The translations under genes were made by a program, and so were the position numbers. The notes under the pieces are model-generated. The model searched no databases. It was not told where the DNA came from and saw only the letters and a program-made list of their open reading frames with translations. A stretch of DNA of 64,000 nucleotides from Catajapyx aquilonaris (lineage: Eukaryota): positions 1 to 64,000 of the forward strand of contig KZ538457.1 in NCBI GenBank assembly GCA_000934665.2. The letters are read 5' to 3'. Below, piece by piece: positions 15,301 to 40,605 of the stretch (the stretch's first letter is position 1; every line of letters begins with the position of its first letter).

Positions 15301-15910
15301 ACCATTGGCTGAGTTGTAACACTAACAAAAGTCTGTCTCGTCACGTAGCGTTGCGCGGTTTTATAATATTCGGTGCATAATAGTGCTTCGAATGTCGGTA
15401 AAAGTTCAGATTTCTTGTCGCAAGATGTCGACGTGTTCCTCAGGACGACAGCAGATGACACGTCCTGAACAAAAAATTGATTCGATATTGTTTGTACAAC
15501 CGGGATGCATATACTTAATTCACTGTTCTTCTCGCGCTTGTTATGTAAAAAATTCTGTTGTGTCCTCAGAAGTGCAGTGGTGACCAATAATTTAGGTTGA
15601 TTGTTATTATACAGTATAATGTGCGAAACAAAATGGTAATTCCATCTAACACAAAACGTCCCATGCTGCAATTTTTACTGTTAAAATGCTGTGTCACTAA
15701 CAGACTGCAGGCCTAGCCTATATTGTTTATACACTCATGGGGAGCAAAAGGTTCCACCTGAAAATTGCATATAGCCTACCTAACCCTAATTATTATCACA
15801 AATTTTTCTTCTGGTGTACTTCATCATACTTATAGGTCGGGTGTTGGGAAGGCAGTCACCCTTTAGACCCCATATCCCTTGTCGGCCCAATAATATTATC
15901 AACAATATTA

Positions 15911-16955
15911 GGGGTAAACCATACAGTTATGGGACACTTAAATTTTTTTACAAGTTCACATCGTCACATGACTCACAGTAATTACATCTGCAGTTTGATT
16001 ATATTTTTTTCTGAATCTTCAGAATGTCCTCTTTCAAGGAGCAACTGTAATTTTGAAATTCTCCTTTACTGTCATTTTTGGTAATGAAAAGTTCCAAAAG
16101 AGTCACAAAAGTACTAACAGTAGTGGGACACTTTTCACAGTTATGGGCCACCTTTGGGACAGTGGTGGGACACATAATTGTAGGGACTCTGATTGTCGTT
16201 TGGAGCCCTTGCGTGGTGCACGGTGTTGCCCAGCACTGTTTCCGACTGTCTCAGCAGCTTTTCAAGTTTGAATCATCATCCCCATCATCTTGTCGTCATT
16301 TGCGTGAAAGATGAATTTACTCCGGAATTATTACCGAACCTGCCTGCCAAGAAAAGAATTTTGTTAAGAACAGATGACTTTCTTATCTGAAATTCCTTCT
16401 AGTCTAGTATCATCAAAAGTTGAATAGTTGCATACCTGCATTAAGCCTACAACAATATTCCATACCAAGAAGCATTTCAAAAAGCAATTTTTAAAATTTA
16501 CCTCGAAATACAGGTATGGGCATTGGGCACGGTATGCACATTTCTGTAAAGTGATGGTTTTGATCCACACAGTTATGGGACACCCCCTTCTACTCATGCT
16601 ATCTATACCGACTCATCATTATTTACAAAATATGAAACTATAGAGCCATGAAAATTGACATCGGAAACCTGGAGTGACGAGAACCCTTGTAAGTTGTAAC
16701 TTATCACTAGCTGCAGTGCTACTCCTTACCGACTACTTAAGGAAGTGGCCCTGATGGAAGTGACCCAGAGACGCGAGGCTCTGGCGACCTTGATGAAAGT
16801 CCAACCGGGAAAAAATTATATACAAAGTTCGCCCAACGATACAGGGCACCCATGGGCAAAAATGATCACTACGTTAACTACACAAATTAATGTGAATAAG
16901 ATTACTATAAGTGTCTCATTACTGTATGGTGTCCCATAACTGTATGGTTTACCCC
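15911..16955. mobile_element. Non-autonomous TA-target (pogo-like) DNA transposon
   Basis: TA|GGGGTAAACCATACAGTTATGGGACAC...GTGTCCCATAACTGTATGGTTTACCCC|TA; the acagttatggg motif recurs internally at ~16137 and ~16569. Confidence 0.8.
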
Positions 16956-19900
16956 TACTTAGGCTACAAAAAAAACACTATATTACAGTATTTTAGATTC
17001 GGTATTCCTACGAATATCCAGAAAAAATTATGACAATTTTCCGAGCTTGGCATGCCAGGTTCAGTCACGCTGGCCACATAATTATACAGTAACTTAAATA
17101 ATATACCCCTAATGCTGTACAAGCTATATGCATGACCAAGAGTAACGGGCTTTATGGATGGCTTCTATTAATAGAATTATAAAATGAAGCAGTATATCTC
17201 TGCCTAACTCTAAAATAATAATGGTGTCGAGAAGACTTTTCTGAAAAGTTGTGAAAATTTATTGCTCATTCACCAAACAAAATATTTACATGTTAAATCT
17301 GTCACGTACAGTGTAACATATGGAGGGAATCAGATAGTTGGTGCTTACTTGTGCAGTACATAAGTTATTTTGAAACAGAACTTCTAAGTAGAAAATATAT
17401 TCATACAGTATCATGATATTTTGGCATGCTCAATTTTACACTGTGCATATAAGCGGTGCCTTTAATCACCATATTTTGTTGTCCCATTTCAGTGAGTAGA
17501 ATGTTTCTTCCTCTTTTTAAATTTTTTTACACATTTTTCACCAATCATAGCCTTGCATTCCTCTCTTCCTTCGAATTTCGTGTTTCCATAAGCCCTATCC
17601 TATTATTATTGAGCACCTGCCCTTCGTTATGGTGACTGACCTAGCCGTAATATTCCCGACTGTACCCCACCTCAGTGACCTCCCTCTTTTCAACCCACCA
17701 ACTCCCAAGCATGTGTTTATCCTCCGACATCTCCCACGCATGACGAGGAAAATCCAGAAAAAAAAGTTAACGTAATGTCTCAATTCGTACAAGGATGACA
17801 AACGTTGGTTATACAAGGTCCACCACTCAGATGAGAGTGAGCCTGTCAGCATGGTTACAATTAAATACACATAAAATATGCGAAAAGTCCCAAGACTATA
17901 CAGACACATATCCACTTCTGGACCAAACGTACGCACATGTATGGCATTGTTCATACAATGCGCATCTACGCGGGGTTTAGGCGAGTGCGTTAGGCCTTCA
18001 ATTTGATAGTTTACAGTGCATCACTAGCAGAACTGGTGTTTACATGGGTGATGCTCTGGCCAAGTCCCCAGTTCAAGAGGAGTATAGGAGAAATTATGGA
18101 TCGTTCACTTCTGCAACCATTTTAAAAAGAAGCAACCGATTTGAAGAAACAATCAAACCACATGAACTTGGCAGGACTGCTGTTTCTGTAACTGGTTACT
18201 GAAGTGGATAATCCACAACTTTTCGGCCTATACCTTCCTCTTATTAAACTAGAGATTTGCGAGGGACACCATAATATATCCTGTAAAATACTATACTCAC
18301 TGTCAGTAAAGTTATACCACCATATTGAGTGTAGATTGTGTCTCGTAATACTTATGCAGAAACCTGTTACACCATAGAGCAGTGGTCTCAAACTTGTTCT
18401 TAAACTTGTTGCATCACAAATAAATACAACCCTTTCCAGTCTGTCGACCCACAGGACCGGTACTTAGGGCCGGTTGTATGGAGGAAAATTGAGAGAATTT
18501 CCCAATATGTCTGATTACGTATTATGAATACCTATGCACAATCAAATATTTTCTCTAATTTGCTTTCAGGACACAAATTAGGGAGAAAATTTCTGATTTT
18601 GGCCCTGATTGTACATACCTATACGTAATCGAAGAATTATCCCTAATTGTCTTTGCGAAAATCTCCCATATTCGCAGGTATTCCCGATGCTTGATCGTGC
18701 AGATATGTCCATTTCGTTTGAGTTGACAACTTGACTTGAACAAAACTCACATGCACTTTTACTGCACCCATTTTGTAACCAAAATAATTTCCTCTCCAGT
18801 AACCTTCACGCGACCCTCAGAACCATCCGAGCGACCCTCGTCTGGGTCGCGACCTCGCACCACGGCCATGTGCAGAATATCACAAGCAAAACTTGGTCAC
18901 TATCATACAGTATATGTGACTGAAGCGCCTGCATTATGCCGTTGTCATATCCTACGCTTTAAGATGATACTCTAACGTCTATAACACGTGTCCAACTATA
19001 TTAAACGCACCTTATGTATCCGTACATTTAACCTTGTCCTTTCTTGGTCTTCTGTTGCCTAACCTTAATATTAGCTTTGCAAAGATAACTTCTAGGGCAA
19101 TTTCCTGTTATGCAATGCTAGGACTGTAATCCATCCGCACCAAGAATATCGTGACCATGATAATCAGGACATACGAGTCAAAAAGGAGCAATGCTTTGTC
19201 ATCTATAGTGTGTGAGTCACCAATGCCAAACTGCACTAAAGAACCACAACTAAGCGTCACCAGTTCTAATTCAGTTAAAATCCTTTTAAAACTCCTCTTA
19301 CCAGTCAACCATTGCGGTCTTCCTGTATTCATGCCACTGACGCCTACAAATTCCTAACACTTCCTCCATAACTTCGCAAGACACAACCATCGCACTAAAA
19401 CCACTTTGACACCAGCCTAAAACCTATATTTTTTTCACTCCAAAAATGGTACAACGCAATTGCAACAGTCGAGGTAAAAATGTCTGTTATAGCGAAGGCA
19501 AGCTACGTGCTGCACAGAACCTTGACAATTAAAGTCTAGCCCCAAGACTCTATATGCATGAAGGCTAAACAAGTTGCAGCCTTGGGAGTGCACATGTGTC
19601 TGAGCATTTGAACAAGCAGAACTGTTACCCTATAGCCAGTCAAGCAGACTGAGGCTGCAGCTGGAGGAGACTCAACTTCATGACCCTCAGCACTTCCCAA
19701 GTCTAGACGGGTTACGTAGGATACTCGAGGTCTTTACGTCTCATGGTCACTTGTATCGGGGCCGACAGTGGAAGCAGGAAAAGGTGTTATCATTTTGTGC
19801 TGATTGCCGCCAAGGTGAGGTTTTGGTCAGGGTCAGCTACCGATGGAATATATGACAGGCATTTTATTTATTTGCATATTTAGTGTAAGAATTTGGGGGA

Positions 19901-21229
19901 GTGGGTTTTTGATTGGTGGAACTAAAAATTGCGCTTATTTGATGGTTACATTGTGGCTCGAAGGCTCCTTCATGGTGTCACTTTCCGCAATCTAAAAAAA
20001 ATGTGTTTAAACCTTAGCGCTAGTGACTCAATGTACTCTAGTGAAAGGATTCAAAATGCTGTCGATAGAGGTCCTCAAGTTACGCCTTTGCCTCTTGCTT
20101 GGATTATTCTTGGCGCTCTCTGAGGGCCAGATCGGCAAGTAACACAGTGAAAATGAATCCTCCCTTCAATCTCCAATGATTAATAATAATAATTGTGACA
20201 ATAACATTATGGAAGTGTAACATTTTATCATTCATTTTTCTGCTTCTGTAGGTGATACGTCATATCTGCAATATTCTCCCTGTTTTCGGAAAATGGAGGA
20301 GGGGTGCAAAGGGGTCCTCGACTGAACAGTAGTCTAATAACACGAAATCCGCAACATATTCCTTTTGTGCCAGTGTAGTACTATAACGAAAATGTTGAGG
20401 TATTTGGTCTTTGTACGAGGGTGTTTTTTAGCCTTCCATTGCGAATAGTTTGTGTTTGTTTCCCAAGTCCATTGGCCATGTGTCCTCCCGTTGCTGCCAA
20501 TTCGAGTAGAAAAAACCTGCTGATCTTTCTGATTCAAATTAAACTGCTCTACTACACCTATAGCTACATACTAAACGATGTGATGGTGTGAATATATTAT
20601 GGTCCGTCGTACTCATGAGAACCTACTGTAATTTTGCACAATTGCCTTTCATACAGGTATCCAAACACTACCGGTACCTGTAAAAGGCTACACAGTTGGA
20701 TAAGGCTAGAAAAAAGTATATGATGTAACTAACTTATGTAAATCGTGACGTCATTCATTGTAAAGCTCTTGATCAGAAAGTACGGCCATGCTTTGACTTG
20801 CGTCATCGGCCTCCATTTTTGGCCTACTATGCCGTAGCATGCTTGAGTTGGACGATGTTTTAATCCTCACCAGGATGCCACAATGCTGTAGAGTAAATTT
20901 TATTGTCACAAACACAGTTGCCTGCTACAGTTACACATTATACTACTGTCTAGCTGACCAAGAAATGGGGGAAATAAAAACGGAAACTTTTGCCTCAGAC
21001 ATTATAGATGGACAGACTGATGGATTATATTATTTTTCACACTACAGTTGGTGTTTACTCAATCTGCTATATTGGCATATATTGCTATATTGGCAGTTAA
21101 CTAGTTTTAAAGGTCTGTATGTATTTTATAGTCTTACCCACAATACGCGAAATATTATACCGTATCGTAAGAATAAGCCAGCTGTTAAAGATAATTTCTA
21201 GATATCCACAATGTTTGGGATGTTTACTG

Positions 21230-21558
21230 TAGTACAGGACATTCACTAAGTGTGGTTCCCCATACTGTTGCTATGAGCCCTTGGGCGACCCTGAAGTATG
21301 TATTATTCTGGGTCTTTTTAGTTGGTTTCAGTTTAGTATTGGTGTTCAGTGTGACAATATACCGTATTGTTGCTTTGTGGTCCGCCTACATGTGGGCTAG
21401 AATTTTTTTCGTATTGCGAACAAAATTTCTATCGCCAGCGCCAGTTCTAAATTGCGTGTTTTCGGATATTTATGGTACGTAGATATCTGCGCTTCAAGTG
21501 TGGCTCACCCAGAAGTTGGTTAAAATAATCACAAAAAATATAAGGAAACGCAAAGCCT
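21230..21558. repeat. Dispersed ~330-bp repeat, copy 1
   Basis: Colinear diverged direct copy at 26503-26868. Confidence 0.75.
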
Positions 21559-21661
21559 GTTCCATATTAAATATCAGACCCGTGGAGTTTTTTATATTAA
21601 CACCAATCAACACCAACTATAGCGAGGCATAGCAATCGTAAGGGGCCTTGTAAGGGGTAAT

Positions 21662-21886
21662 ATTTTTTTACCCCGTGATGTCCCTTACGGGATCTATAGG
21701 GGGGGGGGGGCAGACCACCATCAGTTATATATATTCAATCTTCGGTGCAAGGTGCCAGACACCTCCAAGGTGCAGGTCAGAGACCCTCCCGATGCAGGCG
21801 AAAGGTAGCTCCCAGGCGGGGATCGAAACTGGGACCTTTCACTCAGCAAGCCGAGACGTTACTATCTCGGCCACCACACCTCCCCC
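21662..21886 (-). mobile_element. tRNA-derived SINE, family B (internally deleted)
   Basis: Head and tail match 38678-39045, 47921-48260 and 63476-63802; TSD taaggggt(a/g)at. Confidence 0.8.
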
Positions 21887-21899
21887 TTAAGGGGTGATG

Positions 21900-22182
21900 T
21901 ATTTCTTGTAATACTCCGTGATAGGGCCTTGGGCCCTTTTAGGGAGGGGGTGGAGGTTCTCAAGGGAGGGTTCTCTTAATTAGTTTGTAGTCATTTCTGA
22001 CCCTCTTAAATACCAGACCTTTTCTCTTGGCCCTGAGCAGCGAAGGGAGTGCAAGTCTGCCCGGACATGTCGGGTGAAAAGCGGAAAAAGACCCGACCAT
22101 GCGAAGGTGACGGGAACGGGATTTGAACCCCGGACCTCCCGCTTGGCTGGCCAGTAGCATAGCCACTAGATCACCATGCCCT
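21900..22182 (-). mobile_element. tRNA-derived SINE, family C
   Basis: B box GGTTCAAATCCC; paralogue at 61924-62244. Confidence 0.8.
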
Positions 22183-22984
22183 CTGATAATATTTATTAAC
22201 AACCTTTCTCCATTCGACTGAAACTCTCAAGCAATACTCTCCACGAACATTGAATATATGGACAAGCGCGAAAAAATGAGTATCAAATTTTAGTCATATA
22301 AGGTACAAGAATGTAAATTGGGCAAAATAGCCAGTTATGATGTACGGGTATTTATACAACTGGCCCTTAAAGGTATACAGGAAATCTCATATCTCGACTC
22401 TCTGATTTTGCGTGTTAATACTAGACCATCTGGCAACACACTACGCTTCTCGCTCCTTGCTTGAACAGGTCACTCTACAATAATTTTCTACATCATGATT
22501 TCGCATTCTAGACTTTTGCTGGGGGTATGGTAAATCTCTAAACGTGTCAGTTTATGACTTATAAACACACAATTTAGTACTACAAGAAGTATCCCTCCTA
22601 AATCCTGTGCTTCATGACTTTAGAACATTTTACATCAATCTGATACCGTAAATTATTTTTATATAATTATCCATATTTGCAGAATTATTGATACAAATAC
22701 CATATAACGGCATGAAGAACATTTTGATGATAATTAATTCCTATCAGGAATGTTTAATTAGCGTTAAAATGTATTATAAATTACACTATAATTGTACATG
22801 CATGGGTGTGTTGTCCGGTATATTGGACATTTGTTGCAATAATCAAAATATTTATACTTTTAATCAAGAGTAGACTACTATATTCTTGAATGTATCTGAT
22901 AAAATAATGGATTTGCAACTGAAATGTTCAAATTCAAGACTGAAGAGAAAAGTATTCGCAAAATCAGAGATTTCCGTATATGTG

Positions 22985-23314
22985 GGGAGGCGAAGTGGCG
23001 CTGCGGTAACGTATGCGCCCGCGGATGTTAAGGTCCCGGGTTCGATCCCAACCCGGGGTTCCCCCCTTCATCTCGCGCAGAGTGAGACCGTCTCTGGCTT
23101 CGTTTCGGGTGGCGATCCTTTCACATATGCCACCCGGGGGAGTTCACAAAACGGCACATCAACGACATTGCACACGCACTTTGCACATCCCCTCCTACCT
23201 ACCCTTGGAACACACTAAATACTATCTTAGTATACCGGTTCCACCCAAAAATGGTGGTATTCCATCCCCCTAAAGGAAATGTAACTCCCAATGGGGTAAT
23301 ACAAAAAAAAAAAA
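22985..23314 (+). mobile_element. tRNA-derived SINE, family D
   Basis: A box-like tggcgctgcgg, B box ggttcgatccc, A-tail, TSD tccgtatatgtg at 22973-22984 and 23315-23326. Confidence 0.85.
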
Positions 23315-24706
23315 TCCGTATATGTGAGTGAAGCAACTTTGATAATAATGAGCACATCTCATGCTTTAGACTGTACAGAAGAAACGGAAATCAATATATG
23401 GTTTTATTAAGAGATACATGAGGCAAAAAAATAATCTGCTCTAGAGTTTATTGCAAACGTTACTCGATACTAGCAACCAATGTCGATTATGAAGAAAGTT
23501 TGACGCTGAATAAACCAAAGCATGACACTTTATTATTTTCACCGACCGAAATATTTCTTATTCTTATACCTATAGTAGAATTATTGTGTGTCCAATATGC
23601 ACTACAAATGACTTACACCTACACAAATCAAATAGATTTCTCTATAAGTAATATAGGACCTCGGATTTCATTAGGTCATTAGTCCCAAAATTCAAGATGC
23701 GTTGACTCCACTGCAACAGTTTTTATCCGATGAAAAATAACCCAAACAGGGGGCATTCACTTTTTATGGTTTATGATTTTCTTCGTAGTGAATTTGATTA
23801 CTGCATGAAACTGCAGTATGTAGAGTACAGAGCGTTCACTAATTCAAAGAGCGCTATAAAATTTATAGCAGTGTTCCACTTACATTCTGACACTTGCAAG
23901 GACAGCATGTGCAAAATGAATCGGTCGCTGCTTATCGTACCTTATTCCTGGCCTTCCAGATCCCAGTCCAAAGTAGATTATTATCCATCTTCTAAACTGG
24001 TCAACAGTCTTCAAGCACTTGCTGTCGAGGAACCCTGTTACTATCTTATAAAACTTTGCCAGTTAAGCTTCACTGTGACACGTTTTTAACCACAAGATAC
24101 TATACGATATACCTTGCTCCAAGCCACTAATATTACTCTCTTGTTATTCATTTGGCAGAGACGTTAATACGTAAGTTAGCTACACTTCTCGACTAGCCTG
24201 AGAATAATGAACCCTATAGAATAACTTCTGACCTTACTGATATATGAAAATTCATGTGGCAAATAAACTGGCCATTCCAAATATCGTCGCGGACACTTTG
24301 GAATGCTCAAAGACCCCTGGGTCGAGGTTTGCTATTCACACGAAACACACAATGAAGGAAACACGCACGCACTGCACATCGAAAAAGAATACTCGGATTT
24401 TGAAACGTTATAACTCGAAAACTTGTAGACATATCTAAATGATTTAAGTGCAATCTTTTTCGAAGACCCTGTATAAGCACAGCACTGTTCCACGATCACC
24501 CATGTGTGCCCCGAAAGCAACTGCAGTCAAAGTGTCATATCTGCACGTATATACTGTATGATTCATTCTCCCCAGCTGGTGGTGCATCCTTCAGTCAAAT
24601 GCAATGGAGTATACAACAAATGTAGCCTATGTGATTCAGTTCAATGGGGAGGTAGGGGAATAGATAACAAGTCTGATCTTTAACCTTTTTGTTGTGCCAC
24701 GCCTTA

Positions 24707-24831
24707 GGGCCGGTTCCACCGAGCTCGGTATATGATAAAACCAGGTTTCTTTAGGAAAATCCATACAAATAGATAGGGATTTTGAGAAATACCCTGGTTT
24801 TATCATATACTGAGCTCGGTGAAACCGGCCC
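24707..24831. mobile_element. PIF/Harbinger-type MITE
   Basis: GGGCCGGTT(C/T)CACCGAGCTC...GAGCTCGGTGAAACCGGCCC, ~38-bp arms, TTA/ATA flanks. Confidence 0.8.
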
Positions 24832-26301
24832 ATAGTAACATTTTGGTTCATTACTATTCCTTGCATTTTCCGCAACAGTTAGTTGCTTCATTATTTTTGG
24901 TTATTCTGAAATACCTGGAGTTGTGGTATTAGTCTATTTGAGCTATTCCAGCGCTACGGACGTGAAAATCGCACATGCAGATTGGGAAATATCGCCACGG
25001 TATTATATGCATGTGATGATGTCATGTGTATGGAAAAGAAAAAAATAAGGATCTGAAGTACCATATACCTAGGTATAATACTCTATACGTAACGACCTCC
25101 TGCAATTGCGCACGGAGGAACAGTAAGGGTTATTGTACGTCTTACAAAAGTATCCGCCCACCCATGAAATACAGTATACCGGTATAGGGTGCGGGTGATA
25201 GGAAAAAAACCACCGGAACCATTGAACATAGGATATGGAAGGTCGCTTACCAACCCAAGGGCACACATAGCTGTAGATCTATCTCTTCACCACAGTTATA
25301 TAACTTAACATGGGAGATAATGACAAATAAAATTGTGCTAGTGATGTCAAATATTTCTGCCCACCGCGAAACTCCAGTCCCACTACGATGGGTACTAGCA
25401 AGAGCTTGGTACAGTACTAGTGACACCCTTTTTTATACAGGAAAACCCCCTTTCACGCGTTAAAAGAATGGATCCACGTAATAATGTAATAGTGTTAATA
25501 ACCACTAACATTAACTACGCACTTTAAGTTAGCAGTTTAGGGCCCAAAATCGCTAACCACTTTAATAGCACTTTCAGTGCCTTTGATTTCTAAAAGCTCT
25601 GTACTGCACGTGGAGCTGACAGTGTTCAATTTGTCACAATAACCAGGTTTATTTCTCAAAGGAATTTACTGCTGAATGCAAGACGTTTTTGCTGATTTTC
25701 TTCCTCACTTACTAGTAGAGTCTTGTTACTCCAACATGGCATTTGAATTTAGATCGGGGACCTGAACACTCTTCATGGGCCAATACCACAAAAAATTAAA
25801 ACTTGCAATGGTGTTTTGAAAGCATTGCACGACCTGCAAAAGCATGCAGTGCTGAGAGCCCCCAAAAAATTCGATGCTCCAAACAGAGCAAAGGAATTAT
25901 TTCAGTTAGAAAGTGGTGGGACCACATGGCCATGAGTGTGACATGAGTTCATGAGTAAACAGTTAACAATAGAGCCTGGCCTGGCCTTGCATTTACATAC
26001 CCATGTGGACACATTCCATGGTTTTCTTGGATTTTTTTAATTCGGAGACAGAAACCCTTCAACTTGCTGTGTGACAGATATTTTGTATCTTCAATTTGCT
26101 GTCGACATCTGTGCCTTCCTTCCGGCCGCAGGCGAAATTTTTTTGGGGTTCAAGGTCACAAAGTTCAGGTGAATGTAGCTGACAAAGTACAGTGGAATCT
26201 TCCTACACTGCAAGCACATCGGATACAAGCAAGGAGAAAAGTCGGTCCCTTCATATTTCCAGCAGCGCCAAGTGGAAACATGTTACAGTACATTATTTTA
26301 C

Positions 26302-26328
26302 NNNNNNNNNNNNNNNNNNNNNNNNNNN
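26302..26328. other. Assembly gap (27 N) next to a poly-C run
   Basis: N characters in the sequence. Confidence 1.
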
Positions 26329-26502
26329 CCCCCCCCCCCCCCAGGTTGCTATAGACACTTCTTCGCATTTCAAAACTTCAATCATTAAGATACCGTATGT
26401 CTACAAGTTTTCGAGTTATAAGGGTTTTAAAATCCGCCCATTCTTTTTCGATCACCCTGTATATTACCGGTACTTCATAATGATTGTGTCTCTCTTACTG
26501 TA

Positions 26503-26868
26503 TAGTACAGGACTGCCAAGCGTGATTCCCCATAAGACTGTTGTTATGAACCCCTGGGCGGCCCTGAAGTAGATGATTGTATTATTCTAGGTCTTTTTTA
26601 GTTGGTTTCAGTTCAGTCTTTAGTGTTCAGTGTGACAATATATTCTTGCATTTTGGTCCGCCTAGATGTGGGCTAGAATTTTCTTCGTATTGCCAACAAA
26701 ATTTCTATCGCCAGCGCAGCGCCAGTTCTAAATTGTGTGTTTTCAGATATTATTTTCTGGCGCGTAGATGTCTGCTCTGCAAGTTATTAGTGTGAGCCAA
26801 TTTTTAACTTTCTGGCTCACCCATAAGTGGGTTAAAATAATCACAAAAATGTAAGGAAACGCAAAGGC
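26503..26868. repeat. Dispersed ~330-bp repeat, copy 2
   Basis: Direct copy of 21230-21558. Confidence 0.75.
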
Positions 26869-28683
26869 TCTCCGCTTTTTTGACGTCGTAGCAGGCAGGC
26901 GTCGCGACAGAGGGCTCGTACGTGAAGGAATTGGCGAGTGTAAATGTGTTTGGAGCTATTAGCCAATCTGGAGTACTTGAATCCGGTAATTTTGCTTCCA
27001 TTTGATGGTAATTCATACTGGGAATAAATTAATATCTGGCATTGACGCAGGAATATGACCTGGGAAATAAATTAATTGCTTATTAAATAAAGCAGATATT
27101 GACGATTTTCTGCATGCGTATGGAAAATAACATTTCAAGCTAGGCGTTATGCAGGCGTCTGGGATGTTTTCCTCCTGACCTCACCCCAATATGGGCATGT
27201 GTAAGGGCCTCGTATGGCCTAGTTAATCATAATTAAGAGGCCTTCCCTCACTGCAATTAGACCTGGGAATGTTCCAGAGAGATCACACGAAGCTGAATTG
27301 TGATTACTTGCTTTAATTGCTCGTAATATATTATGACTTCTAAACGTGCGTCTGGAGGGGAAGTCCTCGTGACTGTGGAAGACCCGACGACGCGACGCGA
27401 CGTGGCCATCTTGGTGGAGAAGTGGTGTTCCCTGGCGAGAATGGTTGGCTCCGAGGCAAGTGGTGCCAGTGGAGGAAAAGGGTGCTTATACAGTAGTCTG
27501 GGTGGTCAACTCGTCGCAAAAGGTGGGGAAGGTGTGGTTTAAAGAGAATCACGACAAGTGGTCGTGGCCTTCATTGTTGCTCCTATGAAGGTTTTTTCTC
27601 TTTCTAAACGGATGGCTTCTTCCTATAGACTACATCCTATAGTATAGGGCTTACTCTTAAAATGTGGACTTGGATCAGTGCACCTTTCATCTGATGTCTG
27701 GATGATTTCTGTAATCAATATGATAGATTGGCGAAGATGAATGTCGTTCCAATCCTAATATTTAAATATTTAAATATTCATCCTGAATATTTTTTTCTTT
27801 TAAAATCTCATCAAGCGTCAATCAAATGCTTTTGTTCTCTATTACCATTTTTGCAGAATTGGATTCAAAGCCTTATTCTTGGGCTGGAAGTGGAGGTGGT
27901 GGCTTACGGGACTTATTCATTCCAAGAAAATATGCGAGAGTTTGGGGCACAGTGCTGCTTTGTATTTTACAAAGAAAGTACAGTATGTTGAATATTTTTA
28001 TCAACTAGGCTATTATGATTAAAGAGTATCATCCCTAAATTCATTCCTTTTCATTGTACCCTTTTTTTCTCGGCGTTTAAAGAATGTTCAGAGGTTTATA
28101 CTGTTGCTTATTTTGTAGCTCTTCTCTGTAATTATTTAGACTTCCTGAAATGTTGCAAAAGGTTCGATGCCCCCTATAGAGCCTGTTGGCACAGCTCGGG
28201 ATGTCTGAAATAGAAAATTAAACTTTTTCGATTAATGATTAATGAAAGTCTTTCATCAACAACAATAATACTGTATAGGGCAGCTGTTCCCAAACTGTGC
28301 TCCGAGTAACCATTGAGAATTTTTGAGAATTGAGAAACAGGACACTTTTGAAGGAAAAAAATAGTAACTGGTCCACCTGCCCTTGAACACAACCCTTGAA
28401 CACATAATTTTTTAATTTATTGTACTAATTTTTCACTGCAAATGGCAGAACAACTGCATCAATGTATGTACAGTTGGTCCGAAGGCAATGACTGGCCAGA
28501 CTGCCGGAGCTATCACCAGAATAAAAGAAAAATCAAAGCAGTGCAACAGTAGTCACTCTGTCTTCCACAGACAAGTAGTGATAAGTTAGCCGTTAAAAAC
28601 GCCTTCCTCTTAAAAAGTTCTGGACGAGGTTGTACACTAGCTACTTAGCCGGAAATTCTAATAGCTTTTAAACTCAAATCATG

Positions 28684-28950
28684 TTATTGCAACGAAATTT
28701 GAACTGAGCTAACCTCATTATGTGAGAAAGTAGGATACCGTATGGCATCACATGTGCTGGATATGGTCACCATTTGGGTCCAGGCAGGCCTCAACACGAC
28801 GCTACATATATTTTGGAAGGTTCTGCTGGCCAGCATGACCTGAGGCACTGCCTGAATTTCTTGGGTTATGTGTTCTTTCAAAGAGTCGATGGATTGTGGT
28901 TTGTTTTGGTACACTCGCCCTCTCAGATAGCCCCAGAAGAAGTAATCAGG
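28684..28950 (-). mobile_element. rosa/DD41D-type Tc1/mariner transposase C-terminal remnant
   Basis: PDYFFWGYLRGRVYQNKPQSIDSLKEHITQEIQAVPQVML. Confidence 0.8.
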
Positions 28951-30052
28951 CAGTATAATCAGTCATCTGTGATTTTTTTCACCAAAATCCGAGATGGTCT
29001 AAAGCAGAATTTCGGAAGACTGTTTTCAAACTGTATCACAATGATTTCAATTCTACTGATATTTCCTGGACCCTGCACAATTGTATGTTCCATGAGCATA
29101 GTTCAGTGTTAGGTACTGTACAACTTGTAATTTGGCTGAAAATTCGCTGGTATCCCATGCTTCAAAAAATGGGGAGAGGGGGAAATCTGATTTCCTTGAC
29201 TAGACAATATATTATGCATCTGAGGACTTGGGATGATTTACATTTCAGATATTCCATTGCTGCAGCCTAAATGAAACATTTGCTTAGGCCTCATGTTATA
29301 TGAATATACAGGATGTCTCAAAATGATTCAGACATAATTCTGTGTAATGGTCCAAATGGAGAACCAAAGGTTCACTTTATAGGGTGTGTCACTTTGGTGA
29401 CGGCCGGTGCGGCCGGCAGTACAGTCTTCTAAATAAGACATACATCTAAACTATACTGATATCTAAAATGCTATTTAAAAATCCACAGTGTATTGTCCGG
29501 TCAGTCTTTGACAAAAGCATATTCCACAATATCACTGAGCTAAGAGCATGTTTTGTGCCCCTAAATGGACAACTCGTCGTGATGATATATTTCTAATTCA
29601 AATAATTATTGTAACAGATGAGCATGTGAAAAGGAGTCAGGACAGCATTTTAACTTCTTATCTCGAAATAACTCCTCATTTGCGGTACAGAATATACCAT
29701 AATATTTTAATATACCAAGACGAGTGAGGTACAATAATAGGCATATCTAGGGCCACCATTTGAGTAAGAATGCTTGAATACCGGTATCCAGTTTTTGGTG
29801 CAGACCCAGGTGGAAAAATGGTGCCTCCACACAACGACAATGTATTGCTGCCTGTTTCCTGTTGTCACAATGTAAATATACCATACATTCTTATTTCCAT
29901 AAGTTAGTGAAGATCACGAATATTACGTACGAGTCACTGTTCATCAGTGATCAAGGCACCAAGATTCCTGCATCACGCATTAATCCATCATACGTGTATA
30001 TCCACAATGAACTTTTTAATTAAGTTACATGAAAAATCTACAAACGGTGACA

Positions 30053-30358
30053 TTACGATTGACTCCTGATTCTTTCCGCTTCAGTTGGATATGGCGCCGG
30101 ATTTCTACTAGAGATATCTCCGAGAACGGGATACAGAGGAAGAGGAGCTTCCGGATTACTAGGAGCGTTTTCTTCAATATCCGGGTATGGAGGTGGCATC
30201 ACTTCTGGCAACTGCTCCATCTTCGCTGGTGCTGACGGAGGCGCAGGCTGCGGACCATCTGATGGTACAGCGTTGACCGGTATCGGAGGCAGGCGAGGCA
30301 CCCTGGTTATAGACGCACTCTCGGCTCTTGTAGGCTGCTTGGGATACCATCCGTTCAC
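30053..30358 (-). CDS. TMEM145: TMEM145 exon 12 (Pro-rich cytoplasmic tail, stop)
   Basis: ttgttag|VNGWYPKQ...PPSAP...PPPYP...LYPVL...RSQS*; phase 0 and in frame with exon 11. Confidence 0.78.
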   Translation of the reverse strand: MNGWYPKQPTRAESASITRVPRLPPIPVNAVPSDGPQPAPPSAPAKMEQLPEVMPPPYPDIEENAPSNPEAPLPLYPVLGDISSRNPAPYPTEAERIRSQS

Positions 30359-33300
30359 CTAACAAATAGAAATTGCAAGTCACGATATGTCCGTGGTGTA
30401 ATAATATCGGTGGCTGACCTGTATGCCTACCACCCCGCTAACTGTGAAGAGGTCAAGGGGTGTTGGTAGGGGACCACGACGGTGAATGTCGCCACTAGGG
30501 GCGTAAGGATGGCGACCGAAGCGATCCAAATGACTGTTTCCAGCAGCTCCTGATGGATCGTTTTCCATCACTCCTATTTGAGAAGTCCGGACGTGGAATG
30601 GAAACCGTCGATTTGCCATTGATGGTCTCGTCAGGATCTGCGCCATACATGTAGTTATTAATATCTGTTACCAACCATGTTGTCACAAAGTGTCCAATTA
30701 TTGTTAAAATTCAGAGTTATCTGTTGACATAATTTTCTATGCTCGCACAATTCACCACCCATGCTGTTCTCTAAATGTAGCCTAAAAGAAATTGAACCCA
30801 ACCCAGTACCTAAATCACTGCCTTTACCATGAGACTTAATGGTGGAAAGCTAAAACTTTAGTAATTAATAAAAGTCCATTAACGGGAAAGTGAGTCCTTA
30901 ATGATTCATTTCTATGTTTCTTCTAATGACTTAATGCATGAATATTCTCAATTATTAATTGAAATAGTTGGTGAGGGTAATTCTACCAGAATGCTATCTG
31001 ATAACATTGCCAACGTATACAATAAGGGAACGGCAACGTACAAGTATATTGTGGCAGAAAAAGATGTGCATTTAGTGTTATATGTCCTACCAGAAACACA
31101 ACGTGCCCCACGAAGGTGATTGTGTGTTCAACTCCGCAAACCACCTTCTCTCGTACCCATTTGGAAATCAGGTGGTTGGCAATGATGATCACAACTGGAC
31201 CAGAAATGCACCTGAAAAGTATGTGTGGTTCTACTGCCCATATACGAAGCTGAAGTGTGCATCTTTAGCATATATCTTACCAGAGAGTGTAGAATCCAAA
31301 AAACGGGAGGTAAAATGATGATTTTTCCGGATGATTTTTCAAAGTGAAAAACACGGAATAAATGAGCATGGCCCATCCGACTAGGCGCAAAAATATAAGC
31401 CCATATCCTGCAGGAGACTCGTAAATATACAGCACTCTTCCAGGGTCAAAAAACTGAAATGAGGTACATATTATCATAATACATTCGGGCCATATAGTTA
31501 CATTAAATGCCAACTCATGGTGCTCCCTTACCTCTTGCTCGTAGATAAAAAGGGTTGCGTACACGACACAGTATACGCACATAAAAATAGTCACTTTGAC
31601 TGCACTAGCTTGTCGCAATCTTCCTCTAGTAATTGTGTATCCTTTTGCAATTAGGATAAGCATGAGCAAGAAAACAATGTCGCTGATAGATTCGTACACT
31701 CGCCCTGTAAGAAAAATGCATGCAATGAACTATTAGAATTTGTACGTTTTATCTATCATAGCCTTACCGAACAGTTTAGCAGCAGGATACCCTACACCAT
31801 CTGCACCGTATTTCCCGTAATTCGTACAGAGCAATATTATGCCTACTGTCTCGGACAGTACAGAAACTAGGTACAACTTGTATGTGGTATGGAGGAGCTG
31901 CCGAGAGCGCAGTGCAACTGAAAATGATCCATATAATTATGGTCAGATTTGAAATATCACTTTGTATCGCCTACTACAGGCCTACTGTTAGTTGATGATA
32001 TACATACCTGCGCATATAACACTTACGGCGGAAATGAATACGTAAATTGCACAAAATATCACCAGAATTATTATAATATCTGAAAAGGAGCAATTTAGTA
32101 ATCAGGTTAATGTACAGTACTAGAAAAGTTAGTGCTTTTGTGTCTCAAAAGTGGCGCATATACCGTGTGCACATGAGTGGCAGATAGACGCATTACAAGG
32201 TGAAACATAAAATGACGCATAATTTGATTTTTGGTGTTATTTATTCAAGCCTAATAATAAAAATTAACAAATCAAAAATAGATTCAGTCTGCGCGATTCA
32301 GATGTTCTCCTTGGAAACTTACGCCATACAAGAACTGACGTTGTTGATCACCCGACGGCACAGTCTGTTGTCTCAATATTCATGCCTGAACGAGTACTAG
32401 TGACTTGTTTCGTGATTGTTTGGAATATTATGTTTATTTTTTCCTGAAATAAAATGGTTTGTGTCTCCAAAAGTGCCCATGTTACGAAAACGCTCGAACA
32501 TTTCGTAGACTGTTTTAATAGGGTAAACATCGCATTTGGAATTGATCTCGAAATCGAAACACTCTCCGTGCGACACACATTTGTTTCAGAGTTTTCCTAA
32601 AATAAGCTCACCCTAAACAATCATGGAACTGCTGTAGGCCTACTCTTTCTAGTTCATGAAACTAAATAAGTGGCCTCGATAATGGGCTTCAAGCACGACG
32701 TATAAAGTATCCTGGTTGGTATGCGTCCCTCCGCGCGGTCTTGCTTTTATCACAATGCATAATCAGATTTGATCGTAATTTGCGTTCATACAACCGGTCC
32801 TAAATGTATGAGGAATTAATTATTATCTGTGCATTGTAAGTAAATATAAGTTTTTAACTGCCATGGTGCCTAAGCATTTAAAATAATACAGGTGTAGGGC
32901 CTACAATAAAATAATACAGGTGCTCCATATTGGCTTGTAGTACCGTACGTATATCTACATGCAGTGTAAGTGTTCGAATAACTACCGTACTTTATACTTA
33001 CAAAATTCGTCCGCCGAAAAATGCTCATACAGAAAATCTCCTGGTGGTCCATTAGTCATCCACAATTTGTATCTTAAACTTATTCCCTGAAGAAGTAAAT
33101 ACTGAGTTATTAAGATTACGAATCATAACGCATTAGAGAGAAACCTCTCTCTAAATTTGACTCAAGAAGTCTCAATGGTCAAAAGGCATGAGAAAAGAGA
33201 TCATCGTCCTCATATACTGCATCCCTGTGGTTAACTGCACGTGATCATAAGACATGCAATACACCCATAATGTTTACCGATTCTATAGGCCTACGTTGCA

Positions 33301-34294
33301 ATTTCGTAAGTCATTCTCATCTGATGACATAATCGTACTGTACCTTGGTAGATTCGCAATTACCGACTGCTATGAACCACCATCTTTCTCTGGCTGTCCT
33401 GAAACTTCGGGCGCTGTGGCAGTAATACTTGGTCTTTTGGCCATCTTTAGGAGGAACCACTTCGCAACCAGAATGCGGAAACGTAGCGGTCAGGTTCACA
33501 ATCTGTCCATTCTCTACTTTCAACACCTTTTCTCGGTCAGAGCAGCTCTGAAAATCGGAATTTCCTACTAATATTCGCTAGCTTCACCCATATCACTATG
33601 ACATGGTTTTAGACGCACAAGGTAGAGAACACCCCAAAAGAATAACGAAGTCACATTTACCTTTTGCTTCCTGTATATGGATGACCACTGGTCATCCGTG
33701 TCGTAGTACAACAAAATCTTTTGCACCTCGTAATCCTGCAAAAATTGGAACACCAATTTATTGCCATAATTAAAATCGAGGAAAATCTTCTAGGTGTGCC
33801 AAATCGGAAACACCCCCGTAAAATTAGTCCTAAAGCACCTGCAAAAGTTCCTTTCTTCCCTGGTGAAAATACTAACAACGAAGTTGCCTGGGAATCGATT
33901 TTGTCATTATCTATTCATGGAACGAGATGGCAAGATTCGGCCTCCCAAGCGATCTCTATAGATAAATGCACACGACGCACATTCCGCAGCAGGAATAGGA
34001 TTAATTAATGAAACGCTTGCTAAACATACCTTGTCATACTCCAGCTCGTATCTGAACTGTCCGTCGTACGACAGGAAGCAAAACCGTGCCAGGAACGACC
34101 ATTTCTACATGAATAAAGCACAAGACATTTTTTTTAAACTGTCCAATGTGGGCTCTGATTATTGGCAATAGAAGTCGAAACCGGACTCTTACCTCATTTG
34201 TGACCAAATGACCCTCCAGGTACTTGCCCTTTGAGCACGGGAGCAGCAGCAGTAGAATAGGCCAAACACCCTGAAGTCCAAGTCTATGAATCAT
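30053..34294 (-). CDS. TMEM145: Transmembrane protein 145-like (GOST / GpcrRhopsn4 7TM family), complete 12-exon model: complement(join(30053..30358,30431..30637,31091..31211,31281..31453,31532..31704,31768..31917,32008..32079,33002..33086,33344..33547,33661..33735,34030..34104,34193..34294)), ~580 aa
   Basis: All introns are GT-AG and exon phases join into one open frame. Signal peptide MIHRLGLQGVWPILLLLLPCSKG. Family motifs WSFLARFCFLS, RSFRTARERWWFIAVGNC, HFSADEF, LLHTTYKLY, LIAKGYTITRGRL, FFDPGRVLYIYESPAGYG, KWVREKVV, ILTRPSMANRRFPFHVRTSQI. Confidence 0.92.
30431..30637 (-). CDS. TMEM145: TMEM145 exon 11 (alternative in-frame donor would extend it to 30419)
   Basis: gcgcag|ILTRPSMANRRFPFHVRTSQIGVME...LFTVSGV|gtaggc (or ...VGIQ|gtcagc). 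Confidence 0.85.
31091..31211 (-). CDS. TMEM145: TMEM145 exon 10
   Basis: tttcag|(W)CISGPVVIIIANHLISKWVREKVVCGVEHTITFVGHVVFL|gtagga. Confidence 0.92.
31281..31453 (-). CDS. TMEM145: TMEM145 exon 9
   Basis: tttcag|FFDPGRVLYIYESPAGYGL...FYLPFFGFYTL+TG|gtaaga. Confidence 0.93.
31532..31704 (-). CDS. TMEM145: TMEM145 exon 8
   Basis: ttacag|(G)RVYESISDIVFLLMLILIAKGYTITRGRL...FIYEQE|gtaagg. Confidence 0.93.
31768..31917 (-). CDS. TMEM145: TMEM145 exon 7
   Basis: tttcag|(V)ALRSRQLLHTTYKLYLVSVLSETVGIILLCTNYGKYGADGVGYPAAKLF+G|gtaagg. Confidence 0.92.
32008..32079 (-). CDS. TMEM145: TMEM145 exon 6 (first TM helix)
   Basis: tttcag|(Y)IIIILVIFCAIYVFISAVSVICA+G|gtatgt, phase 1 on both sides. Confidence 0.88.
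33002..33086 (-). CDS. TMEM145: TMEM145 exon 5
   Basis: cttcag|GISLRYKLWMTNGPPGDFLYEHFSADEF+T|gtaagt. Confidence 0.92.
33344..33547 (-). CDS. TMEM145: TMEM145 exon 4
   Basis: tttcag|SCSDREKVLKVENGQIVNLT...RSFRTARERWWFIAVGNCESTK|gtacag. Confidence 0.92.
33661..33735 (-). CDS. TMEM145: TMEM145 exon 3
   Basis: ttgcag|DYEVQKILLYYDTDDQWSSIYRKQK|gtaaat. Confidence 0.92.
34030..34104 (-). CDS. TMEM145: TMEM145 exon 2
   Basis: tgtag|KWSFLARFCFLSYDGQFRYELEYDK|gtatgt. Confidence 0.92.
34193..34294 (-). CDS. TMEM145: TMEM145 exon 1 (ATG, signal peptide)
   Basis: MIHRLGLQGVWPILLLLLPCSKGKYLEGHLVTNE, donor GAG|gtaaga. Confidence 0.88.
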
Positions 34295-38677: not shown

Positions 38678-39045
38678 TTTTATTTTTTAATTTTTATTTG
38701 TTTTTATTTATTTTATCCCGTGATGTCCCTTACGGGAGCTATAGGGGGGTGGCATACCACCATCATTTTTCTGTATATATTTTCACTTCATTCACCAGTG
38801 CAAGGAAACAGGGACAGTGGGAAAGGATAGGGATTTTTGGGGAGGGAACATGGGTGCAAGGTGCAATGTCGTAGCTAATGGGTCATGTGCTGTTCCCCGG
38901 GAGGTTAGGTTGCCAGACACCTCCTTGGTGCAGGTCAGAGACCCTCCTGACGCAGGTGAAAGGAAAGTTCCCCAGGCGGGAATCGAACCTGGGGCCTTTC
39001 ACTCAGCAAGCCAAGACGTTACCATCTCGGCCACCACACCTCCCC
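38678..39045 (-). mobile_element. tRNA-derived SINE, family B, full length
   Basis: A and B boxes, T-rich tail on +, TSD ccatctagctgataat at 38662-38677 and 39044-39059. Confidence 0.88.
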
Positions 39046-39300: not shown

Positions 39301-39667
39301 TAATATGAAAGTAGCCGGTATGTTTCCCTTTCCAAAAATTAACAGTTTCTCTCCTTTTCCCACTTCTGGTTTGGTTTCCCTAGAAGACCTAGATTCACAA
39401 AGTCAAAGGCATATCAAAAATCCTGCATTCAGAGATTAGGCTGAAGGTCAAGCAGGTGGGACAGCAACTGCACTGCAGTGGTCACTCACATCTAGGCAAA
39501 AAAAGAGCCTTAGGTCTTTGCTATGGTTTAGTCAATCCACACAAAAATCATTCAAAATTTTCATGCTTGGGCAATGTCCATCTGTGCAGGAACAATGGAC
39601 TTGAAATATGCCGCTCACTGCCAAAAATTACTGCTATAACTAAACGGACACTTGGGACAGTCTAATC

Positions 39668-40605
39668 CAGTGGTTTCCAACCTCTTACCAACTGCGACCC
39701 CCTAAACATGTTTCCATGTTCCTGCGACCCCCCCCCCCNTTCCCCAGCCCCTCCTACAACTGCCCCCTTTCCAGAAAACATACACTCTTTAGACCGCAAA
39801 AATGGTTCAATTGACACAGAAATTGCACGGAAAAAAAATGATGATTTGGCACGGGGCACCTAGTTCGTCTTTCTTCCATTTTGGCCCTAGAAATTAATGA
39901 CCTTTACGGCGAGTCGAAGTGAACAGAAAACGGTGTTTCTGAAATGTGAATTTTATTAATATGGCGGAAGGAATAGAGAGATAATCGCACACATTTATGA
40001 TTTTAATACAATCGTGTCGACTATGGTACCATTTTGAAGGCCAAATCTTTGCACACGTTTTTCCGAGATTAACATTTCGGGACAAAAAATTACATTCCCT
40101 ATGAAATGCATTACCATATTTTTACTGCTGACCCCACCTTAATCTCAGGTATTCCCCCTGCACATCCAGCCAGAACTTCATCATCAATTCTCCATCTTGA
40201 AATAGATCTTGAATGTGTGGTCCCAGAACAAATCAATGAGCTGCTCTCATTCATAAGTAGACAGTTTTTCCCTTGAGAACTCACTGAAGAGATCGAACCT
40301 ATTCGACCTCTGCAATGTCACTGTCACTGAAATATTTCTCAAAACCCTCTTTTAGTATTTCCAAATGTGTGGATGTGACTCGCCCTTGAAATTTGCGCCA
40401 CTGCCCTCGATAGACGATGAAACATTTCAAATGAAGATTGCTCCACTTTTTTTCTGCCAGCCAGAGTTCTTGTTTTAATAAAAATGCGCTATTTTTTCAT
40501 GCAATGAAAAAATGTTCCTTAATTTGACCCCTTGCAGAGAAGTATTGAGCACATTCAGCTCCTAAAACATATCTGCAAAATATGCCAGTCATCATAAAGT
40601 AATTT

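Follow-up and report, generated by a model that had tools for sequence, protein, structure and literature searches.

Recurrent PPxY and P[ST]AP motifs in the predicted cytoplasmic tail of animal TMEM145 proteins, and their arrangement in Catajapyx aquilonaris

Results

The stretch of Catajapyx aquilonaris DNA analyzed here (the first 64,000 nt of contig KZ538457.1; hereafter the window, to which all positions refer) is predicted to encode, on its minus strand, a 584-residue invertebrate orthologue of TMEM145 in 12 exons. The exon model was built from tblastn alignments with five orthologues followed by splice-site inspection, and it comprises 584 codons free of internal stops and 11 GT-AG introns, six of which are 60-90 nt long. 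Exon 1 (34193..34294, 34 codons, start codon at 34292-34294) encodes a hydrophobic, signal-peptide-like N-terminus that begins with MIHRL, and its region 34258-34193 was aligned by tblastn to the orthologues of Darwinula and amphioxus. The luminal TMEM145_N (GOLD-like) domain was assigned by Pfam and tblastn to exons 2-5 (34030-34104, 33661-33735, 33344-33547 and 33002-33086), with matches to PF21892 at 33320-33577 in exon 4 (E = 8.3e-20) and at 33910-34104 in exon 2 (E = 7.5e-07). Exons 6-10 (32008-32079, 31768-31917, 31532-31704, 31281-31453 and 31091-31211) encode the seven-transmembrane domain, as recognized by tblastn to the five orthologues and by Pfam (GPR180/TMEM145_TM, PF10192; E = 6.8e-26, 6.8e-09 and 1.9e-06), and seven hydrophobic segments lie within residues 182-411 of the model. 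The proximal tail, containing ILTRPS..N..FPFHVRTSQI, HPYAPS and DLFTVSG, was located by tblastn in exon 11 (30419..30637), where the matches to Orchesella, Darwinula, Panulirus, Lygus and Branchiostoma reach 30428-30437. Beyond the last helix the protein continues for approximately 173 residues, 33 of them proline, without a hydrophobic 19-mer above a KD value of 1.09, and neither exon 11 nor exon 12 had a Pfam match. Judging from the established topology of GOST proteins, this C-terminal tail should be cytoplasmic. A sequence resembling a polyadenylation signal, ATTAAA, occurs as a pattern match only at 30015..30020 on the minus strand, about 33 nt past the stop codon.

With a 150-residue open reading frame from the transmembrane region as query, 71 homologues were identified, the majority under the name TMEM145. 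Orchesella, Darwinula and decapods provided the best of them, and the top matches bearing this name came from crustaceans, collembolans, molluscs and amphioxus. Identity in the transmembrane exons was about 65-68% for the best among the matches listed; in the representative library 473 matches were obtained at E <= 0.001, and the best 150 of the 473 were used. The names of the matches together with the juxtamembrane FP[FY]HVRTSQI in exon 11 point to orthology with TMEM145 rather than GPR180, and the Pfam assignments on the upstream exons uphold the identification of the gene as TMEM145 that had been made in a preliminary description of this DNA. A close relative was not found by searches with exon 11 alone (46 candidates, none at E <= 0.001), with exon 12 alone against longer proteins (560 candidates, none at E <= 0.01) or with the transmembrane reading frame against metagenome contigs (207 pattern matches, none confirmed).

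Elsewhere in the window, upstream of TMEM145 and likewise on the minus strand, a reading frame at 46868-47236 encodes an Ets DNA-binding domain (PF00178, E = 2.2e-29) and belongs to an adjacent gene. Two interspersed copies of a repeat, each approximately 270 nt long and 78-94% identical, are located at 38766-39033 and 47983-48247. Translated fragments similar to this repeat, probably a short interspersed element, occur at further places of the minus strand. Some 230 nt are duplicated locally (48659-48888 and 48991-49222) with a period of 332-334 nt and 82-84% identity. The window contains 28 N, and an X in the translated frame 39665-39859 places an assembly gap at approximately 39700-39790.

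The distal tail is encoded by the coding part of exon 12 (30053..30358, minus strand), an open frame of 101 codons at 30056-30358 that is closed by a TAA stop at 30053-30055 and whose peptide (...RLPPIPVNAVPSDGPQPAPPSAPAKMEQLPEVMPPPYPDIEENAPSNPEAPLPLYPVLGDISS...) consists of proline to 25%. Exon 11 ends with ...GIQ at 30419 and is followed by the donor GTCAGC of intron 11 (30359..30418; GTCAGC...TTGTTAG), which is 60 nt long, keeps the reading frame, contains an in-frame stop and ends with the acceptor TTTCTATTTGTTAG directly before 30358. Since 6 of the 11 introns measure 60-90 nt, a length of 60 nt is normal for this gene. The donor of intron 11 is the weakest in the gene and the sole one among 11 without A at position +3. 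A second donor (GTAGGC, preceded by GTG), with which the exon would end at 30431 and the intron would be 72 nt long, is likewise in frame, so that the distal tail would be identical with either donor; retention of the intron would end the protein 12 residues past exon 11. Among sequencing runs a single one, not recorded as RNA, contained the sequence (0.22 of the words), and it gave four short contigs with identities of 99% or higher and no splice joint. Homology to the orthologues at the sequence level stops at DLFTVSGVV (30428). Local alignment of exon 12 with the distal tail of Gigantopelta yielded a score of 59, which was matched by none of 100 shuffles, and that with the Darwinula tail (TRAESASITRVPRLPPI and TVATSAEMTRMGRLPPL, respectively) a score of 53, matched by 2 of 100 shuffles. 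In Gigantopelta the sequence is RLPPI-TATAPP-(10 residues)-PPSY, as compared to RLPPI-(13 residues)-PSAP-(10 residues)-PPPY in Catajapyx, and the order RLPP[LI], [PA][ST]AP, PPxY and finally a C-terminal hydrophobic-Phe/Tyr motif is common to exon 12 and distant orthologues. Because of this shared order and the in-frame 60-nt GT-AG intron, the predicted junction of exons 11 and 12 is very probably correct, and the three-motif tail exon of the preliminary description was recovered as exon 12.

Two other ways to read this region were rejected. An overlapping frame of 87 codons at 30177-30437 had neither motif nor homology support as a coding frame. When positions 15000-31100 of the minus strand were scanned for an alternative last exon with an SFPHH-type motif, as it occurs in decapods, Lineus and Darwinula, the two matches lay beside stop codons and neither made a credible exon. 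The SFPHH motif is present in many protostome TMEM145 tails, and the gene described here is without it.

Four motifs of exon 12 deserve attention, all on the minus strand. RLPPI (30284..30298, residue 505) represents the [RKQ]LPP[LI] motif, which is found across the family. PSAP (30227..30238), which starts at residue 524 and is followed by A, not P, is of the P[ST]AP type recognized by the UEV domain of TSG101. PPPYPDI (30176..30196, with PPPY at 30185-30196) is an extended PY motif, in which PPxY is complemented by a hydrophobic Y+3 position, and LYPVL (30122..30136), which ends at residue 562, fits the ALIX-type consensus LYPxL. YPDI and YPVL, contained in the latter two, both also fit YxxPhi. 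From the start of PSAP to the end of LYPVL the three consensus matches span 39 residues (524-562) of a proline-rich tail that is predicted to be disordered and, by GOST topology, cytosolic. Translation of the reverse complement confirmed the three motif positions of the preliminary description, the peptide that it quoted was exact and its count of 39 residues holds.

When the 101 residues of exon 12 were shuffled 200,000 times with their composition preserved, P[ST]AP occurred in 7.0% of the shuffles, PP.Y in 21.7% and [LM]YP.[LI] in 0.65%, the single motifs being not rare owing to the proline content of 25%. All three occurred jointly in 0.01%, a figure that rose to 0.17% when the third motif was relaxed to YPx(1-3)L. 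The triple is thus unlikely in one given tail, yet it could arise by chance across a proteome of proline-rich tails, and therefore conservation decides the question. The reading that exon 12 has no function in this respect, either because intron 11 is retained and the exon lies outside the mature mRNA or because its motifs are chance matches in a proline-rich disordered tail, would agree with the weak donor, with the frequency of PP.Y in the shuffles and with the finding that exon 12 alone matches no homologue. However, an in-frame GT-AG intron with a second in-frame donor leads into a frame that stays open for 101 codons, the order of motifs is common to orthologues and nearly all full-length orthologues run well beyond the LFTVS motif, all of which makes this reading very unlikely.

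Conservation was assessed in 209 fetched proteins, of which 85 that had the juxtamembrane anchor and a tail of 75 residues or more were counted; the other 124 were fragments, were without the anchor pattern or had a short tail, and the odd models P0035 and P0021 were kept. PPxY was present in 24 and P[ST]AP in 19 of the 85 tails, with 6 tails containing both. Greedy de-replication removed 23 tails and left 62 non-redundant ones, in which counts were compared with the shuffle expectation, the sequences not being phylogenetically independent and many of them stemming from molluscs. PP.Y was observed in 16 of the 62 (2.5 expected) and P[ST]AP in 12 (1.3 expected), while the scrambled control motifs remained at chance level (observed against expected: PA[ST]P, 2 and 1.4; Y.PP, 2 and 2.6; PP.F, 3 and 4.1; PP.H, 1 and 3.2). 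The extended form PP.Y..[LMIVF] was found in 8 tails (0.5 expected), and Y+3 is hydrophobic in 11 of 21 PPxY sites, so that PPPYPDI appears to be the Catajapyx form of a conserved PPxYxxPhi motif in the putative cytoplasmic tail.

The PPxY carriers range from the sponge Corticium (PPAY, near the C-terminus) and the cnidarians Dendronephthya (PPPSY) and Sanderia (PPEYPQPSAP) to Branchiostoma (PPPY), copepod-like sequences (PPPPY), Orchesella (PPPKY) and chitons, gastropods and bivalves (terminal PPSYxxLF, as well as PSAPPRY, PTAPPRY and PSAPNPPSY). In bivalves and a jellyfish P[ST]AP adjoins PPxY, with PSAPPRY, PTAPPRY, PSAPNPPSY and PPEYPQPSAP as examples. PPxY was absent from decapods and from the sampled insects (Lygus, three Lepidoptera, Cylas and Anopheles), and neither PPxY nor P[ST]AP was present in the five vertebrate tails (Bison, Taeniopygia, Anser, Tachysurus and Petromyzon). 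Its absence from decapods, most insects and all five vertebrate tails indicates that the module is dispensable. Considering its conserved position late in the tail, its wide phyletic spread and the frequent hydrophobic Y+3, PPxY is the best supported of the motifs.

The support for PSAP is moderate. [ST]APP was as enriched as P[ST]AP (11 of 62 tails, 1.3 expected), and about 10 residues before PPxY Gigantopelta has ATAP, Orchesella ASAP and Liolophura PRAP, which suggests that the selected core may be broader than a TSG101 ligand. The same observations bear on the proposal that the tail is a signalling or scaffold platform for proline-recognition partners other than ESCRT, with PPxY binding non-Nedd4 WW proteins of the Yorkie/YAP, Kibra or Smurf type and with [ST]APP and RLPP[LI] binding SH3, EVH1 or WW group II domains. 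[RKQ]LPP[LI] was found in 9 of the 62 tails against 0.1 expected, and it is, like [ST]APP, enriched as strongly as the canonical motifs, and the near-misses at the PSAP position would be accommodated as well. On the other hand, a hydrophobic Y+3 in about half of the PPxY sites fits the Nedd4-type extended PY motif, and a canonical P[ST]AP adjoins PPxY in several phyla; we regard such partners as rather unlikely to be the explanation.

The picture is different for LYPVL. LYPxL occurred in none of the other 85 TMEM145 tails and YPx(1-3)L in 3; in the de-replicated set the counts were 0 for [LM]YP.[LI] (0.2 expected) and 2 for YPx(1-3)L (3.9 expected), and none of the other 85 tails contained all three motifs. 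At the site of LYPVL, where Catajapyx has LPLYPVLGDIS, amphioxus has IPDFTVKSGIS, an annelid-like sequence PFVVTK and a beetle ELFTVSG. We read LYPVL as a diverged, lineage-specific copy of the terminal hydrophobic-Phe motif that probably fits LYPxL by happenstance, although an ability to bind ALIX or AP may have been acquired. Hence, of the motifs that the preliminary description had proposed to compare among relatives, PPxY and P[ST]AP recur in distant tails, whereas LYPVL was found in this species only.

The fit of YPDI and YPVL to YxxPhi would also allow both to be adaptor signals for AP-1 or AP-2, the proline context being incidental, and the hydrophobic Y+3 of 11 PPxY sites in the family is in line with this. 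Contrarily, the conserved part is the PP before Y, 10 of the 21 PPxY sites have no hydrophobic Y+3, and YxxPhi without a preceding PP was depleted (18 of 62 tails, 36.7 expected), i.e., it is not conserved independently of the prolines, which renders the adaptor reading highly improbable.

Further elements of the tails were noted in the course of the comparison. A motif resembling (P)NFTELFTVS is the most conserved tail element, extending from cnidarians to mammals, with its proximal copy in Catajapyx at 30428-30445 (minus strand), and a second copy with the pattern hydrophobic-Phe-x-Val frequently ends TMEM145 proteins. [RKQ]LPP[LI] recurs in distal tails over a range that reaches from Hydractinia among the cnidarians to molluscs and crustaceans, its carriers including P0002, P0062, P0106, P0107, P0113, P0114 and P0128. 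The frequency of YxxPhi without a preceding PP, about half of what composition predicts, may mean that spurious sorting signals are avoided.

Discussion

The comparison of tails suggests that PPxY and P[ST]AP form an old and recurring motif set in animal TMEM145 proteins. What stands on the firmest ground and is of the greatest interest is the PY/PSAP/RLPPL architecture of the family and not the species-specific triad. PPxYxxPhi is the extended PY motif of the ENaC type, and cellular membrane proteins with PY or PSAP motifs are a kind already known, which TMEM145 would join. We lean slightly toward the view that the PY/PSAP module serves endosomal sorting via Nedd4-family ligases, possibly together with ESCRT-I. 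In such a route, PPxY would be bound by the WW domains of a Nedd4-family HECT ubiquitin ligase and so bring in the ligase, PSAP close by would contact ESCRT-I (TSG101) directly and the receptor with its luminal cargo would leave the Golgi or plasma membrane for the endosome/multivesicular-body route, to end in turnover or vesicle release; that the outcome would be vesicle release rather than turnover is speculation. In other systems, PTAP has been described to bind ESCRT-I, YPDL-type motifs to bind ALIX and PPxY to bind Nedd4-like HECT ligases (PMC2958808, PMC6874086).

The preliminary description had gone further and proposed the complete triad as a sorting or budding signal, with PSAP, PPPY and LYPVL recruiting TSG101, Nedd4 and ALIX and TMEM145 budding by itself, like Gag or ARRDC1, into intraluminal or plasma-membrane-derived vesicles. 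Three consensus matches within 39 residues, rare as they are in shuffles, and the family-wide enrichment of PSAP and PPxY are consistent with this proposal, as is the promotion of stereocilin and tubby secretion that is described for mouse TMEM145 in the available text of PMC12789471. However, LYPxL is absent from the other tails, YPx(1-3)L does not exceed the chance level and there is no second tail with three motifs, so that a complete three-motif budding domain appears to be without conservation support. Moreover, the mammalian tail, as represented by Bison, is without PPxY and PSAP, and it is the mammalian protein that has the secretion phenotype; the available main text of PMC12789471 makes no mention of ESCRT, exosome, PPxY, NEDD4 or ubiquitin. 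Taken together, the triad as a functional unit is clearly unlikely, and what stands of the original claim is its PPxY and P[ST]AP part.

To our knowledge, the vertebrate protein is the only TMEM145 that has been studied experimentally. It resembles the Catajapyx protein in its Pfam domains and in the proximal tail with FP[FY]HVRTSQI and NFTELF, and differs in that all five vertebrate tails have neither PPxY nor P[ST]AP. According to the available text of PMC12789471, the GOLD domain of TMEM145 binds stereocilin, the seven-transmembrane/cytoplasmic part binds tubby, and the protein is likened to WLS. Since the mammalian tail is without PPxY and PSAP, the stereocilin/tubby secretion phenotype cannot depend on these motifs. 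In the same text the secretion of tubby is called unconventional and its mechanism unknown, and the manner of its release is not dealt with (PMC12789471). The full-text literature search returned no paper joining TMEM145 with PPxY or TSG101, and co-mention with NEDD4 was confined to unrelated gene-list papers, in agreement with the earlier statement that an ESCRT-type role of TMEM145 had apparently not been described; one of these gene-list papers names CG9304 as the fly orthologue.

A more far-reaching idea is that an ESCRT-coupled export receptor was the ancestral role of TMEM145, whose own tail would recruit Nedd4, ESCRT-I and ALIX by means of PSAP and PPxY (plus LYPxL in Catajapyx). We consider it plainly improbable. 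Were it true, vesicles would export either the cargo of the GOLD domain or clients from the cytosol, tubby-like proteins for instance, in parallel to Wntless exosomes and ARRDC1 microvesicles; in vertebrates the module would have disappeared, with secretion maintained in a different way.

As to the favoured route of endosomal sorting, TMEM145 is a nearly unstudied receptor of the GOST family, and a PY/PSAP module ranging from sponges to arthropods would offer a testable handle on the trafficking or turnover of the invertebrate protein and a contrast with the vertebrate one. Within the GOST superfamily of GOLD plus seven-transmembrane proteins, Wntless/Evi serves a secreted ligand as its cargo receptor, follows an endosomal/multivesicular-body itinerary and is reported on exosomes; it differs in being sorted by YxxPhi and retromer motifs and is not known to use PSAP or PPxY. 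In ARRDC1, PSAP and PPxY engage TSG101 and Nedd4-family ligases and drive ARRDC1-mediated microvesicles, and TMEM145 resembles this cellular protein in combining P[ST]AP with PPxY. ARRDC1 is a soluble adaptor with an arrestin fold, whereas TMEM145 is a seven-transmembrane receptor with a GOLD domain that carries the motifs in its own tail. ENaC, NDFIP1/2 and Drosophila Commissureless are membrane proteins under the control of Nedd4-family ligases with a cytoplasmic PPxY, often as PPxYxxPhi, to which PPPYPDI of Catajapyx and PPSYEALF or PPRYDVLF of molluscs can be compared; these proteins do not belong to GOST, and most of them are not known to have an adjoining PSAP. The module would also place a seven-transmembrane cargo receptor among the few cellular proteins with virus-like late-domain combinations. 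In this respect, the overlapping PTAPPRY, PSAPPRY and PSAPPPVY of bivalve TMEM145 resemble the PTAPPEY type of filovirus VP40 and retroviral Gag, whereas in TMEM145 of Catajapyx, a cellular receptor and not a viral matrix protein, the two motifs are 10 residues apart.
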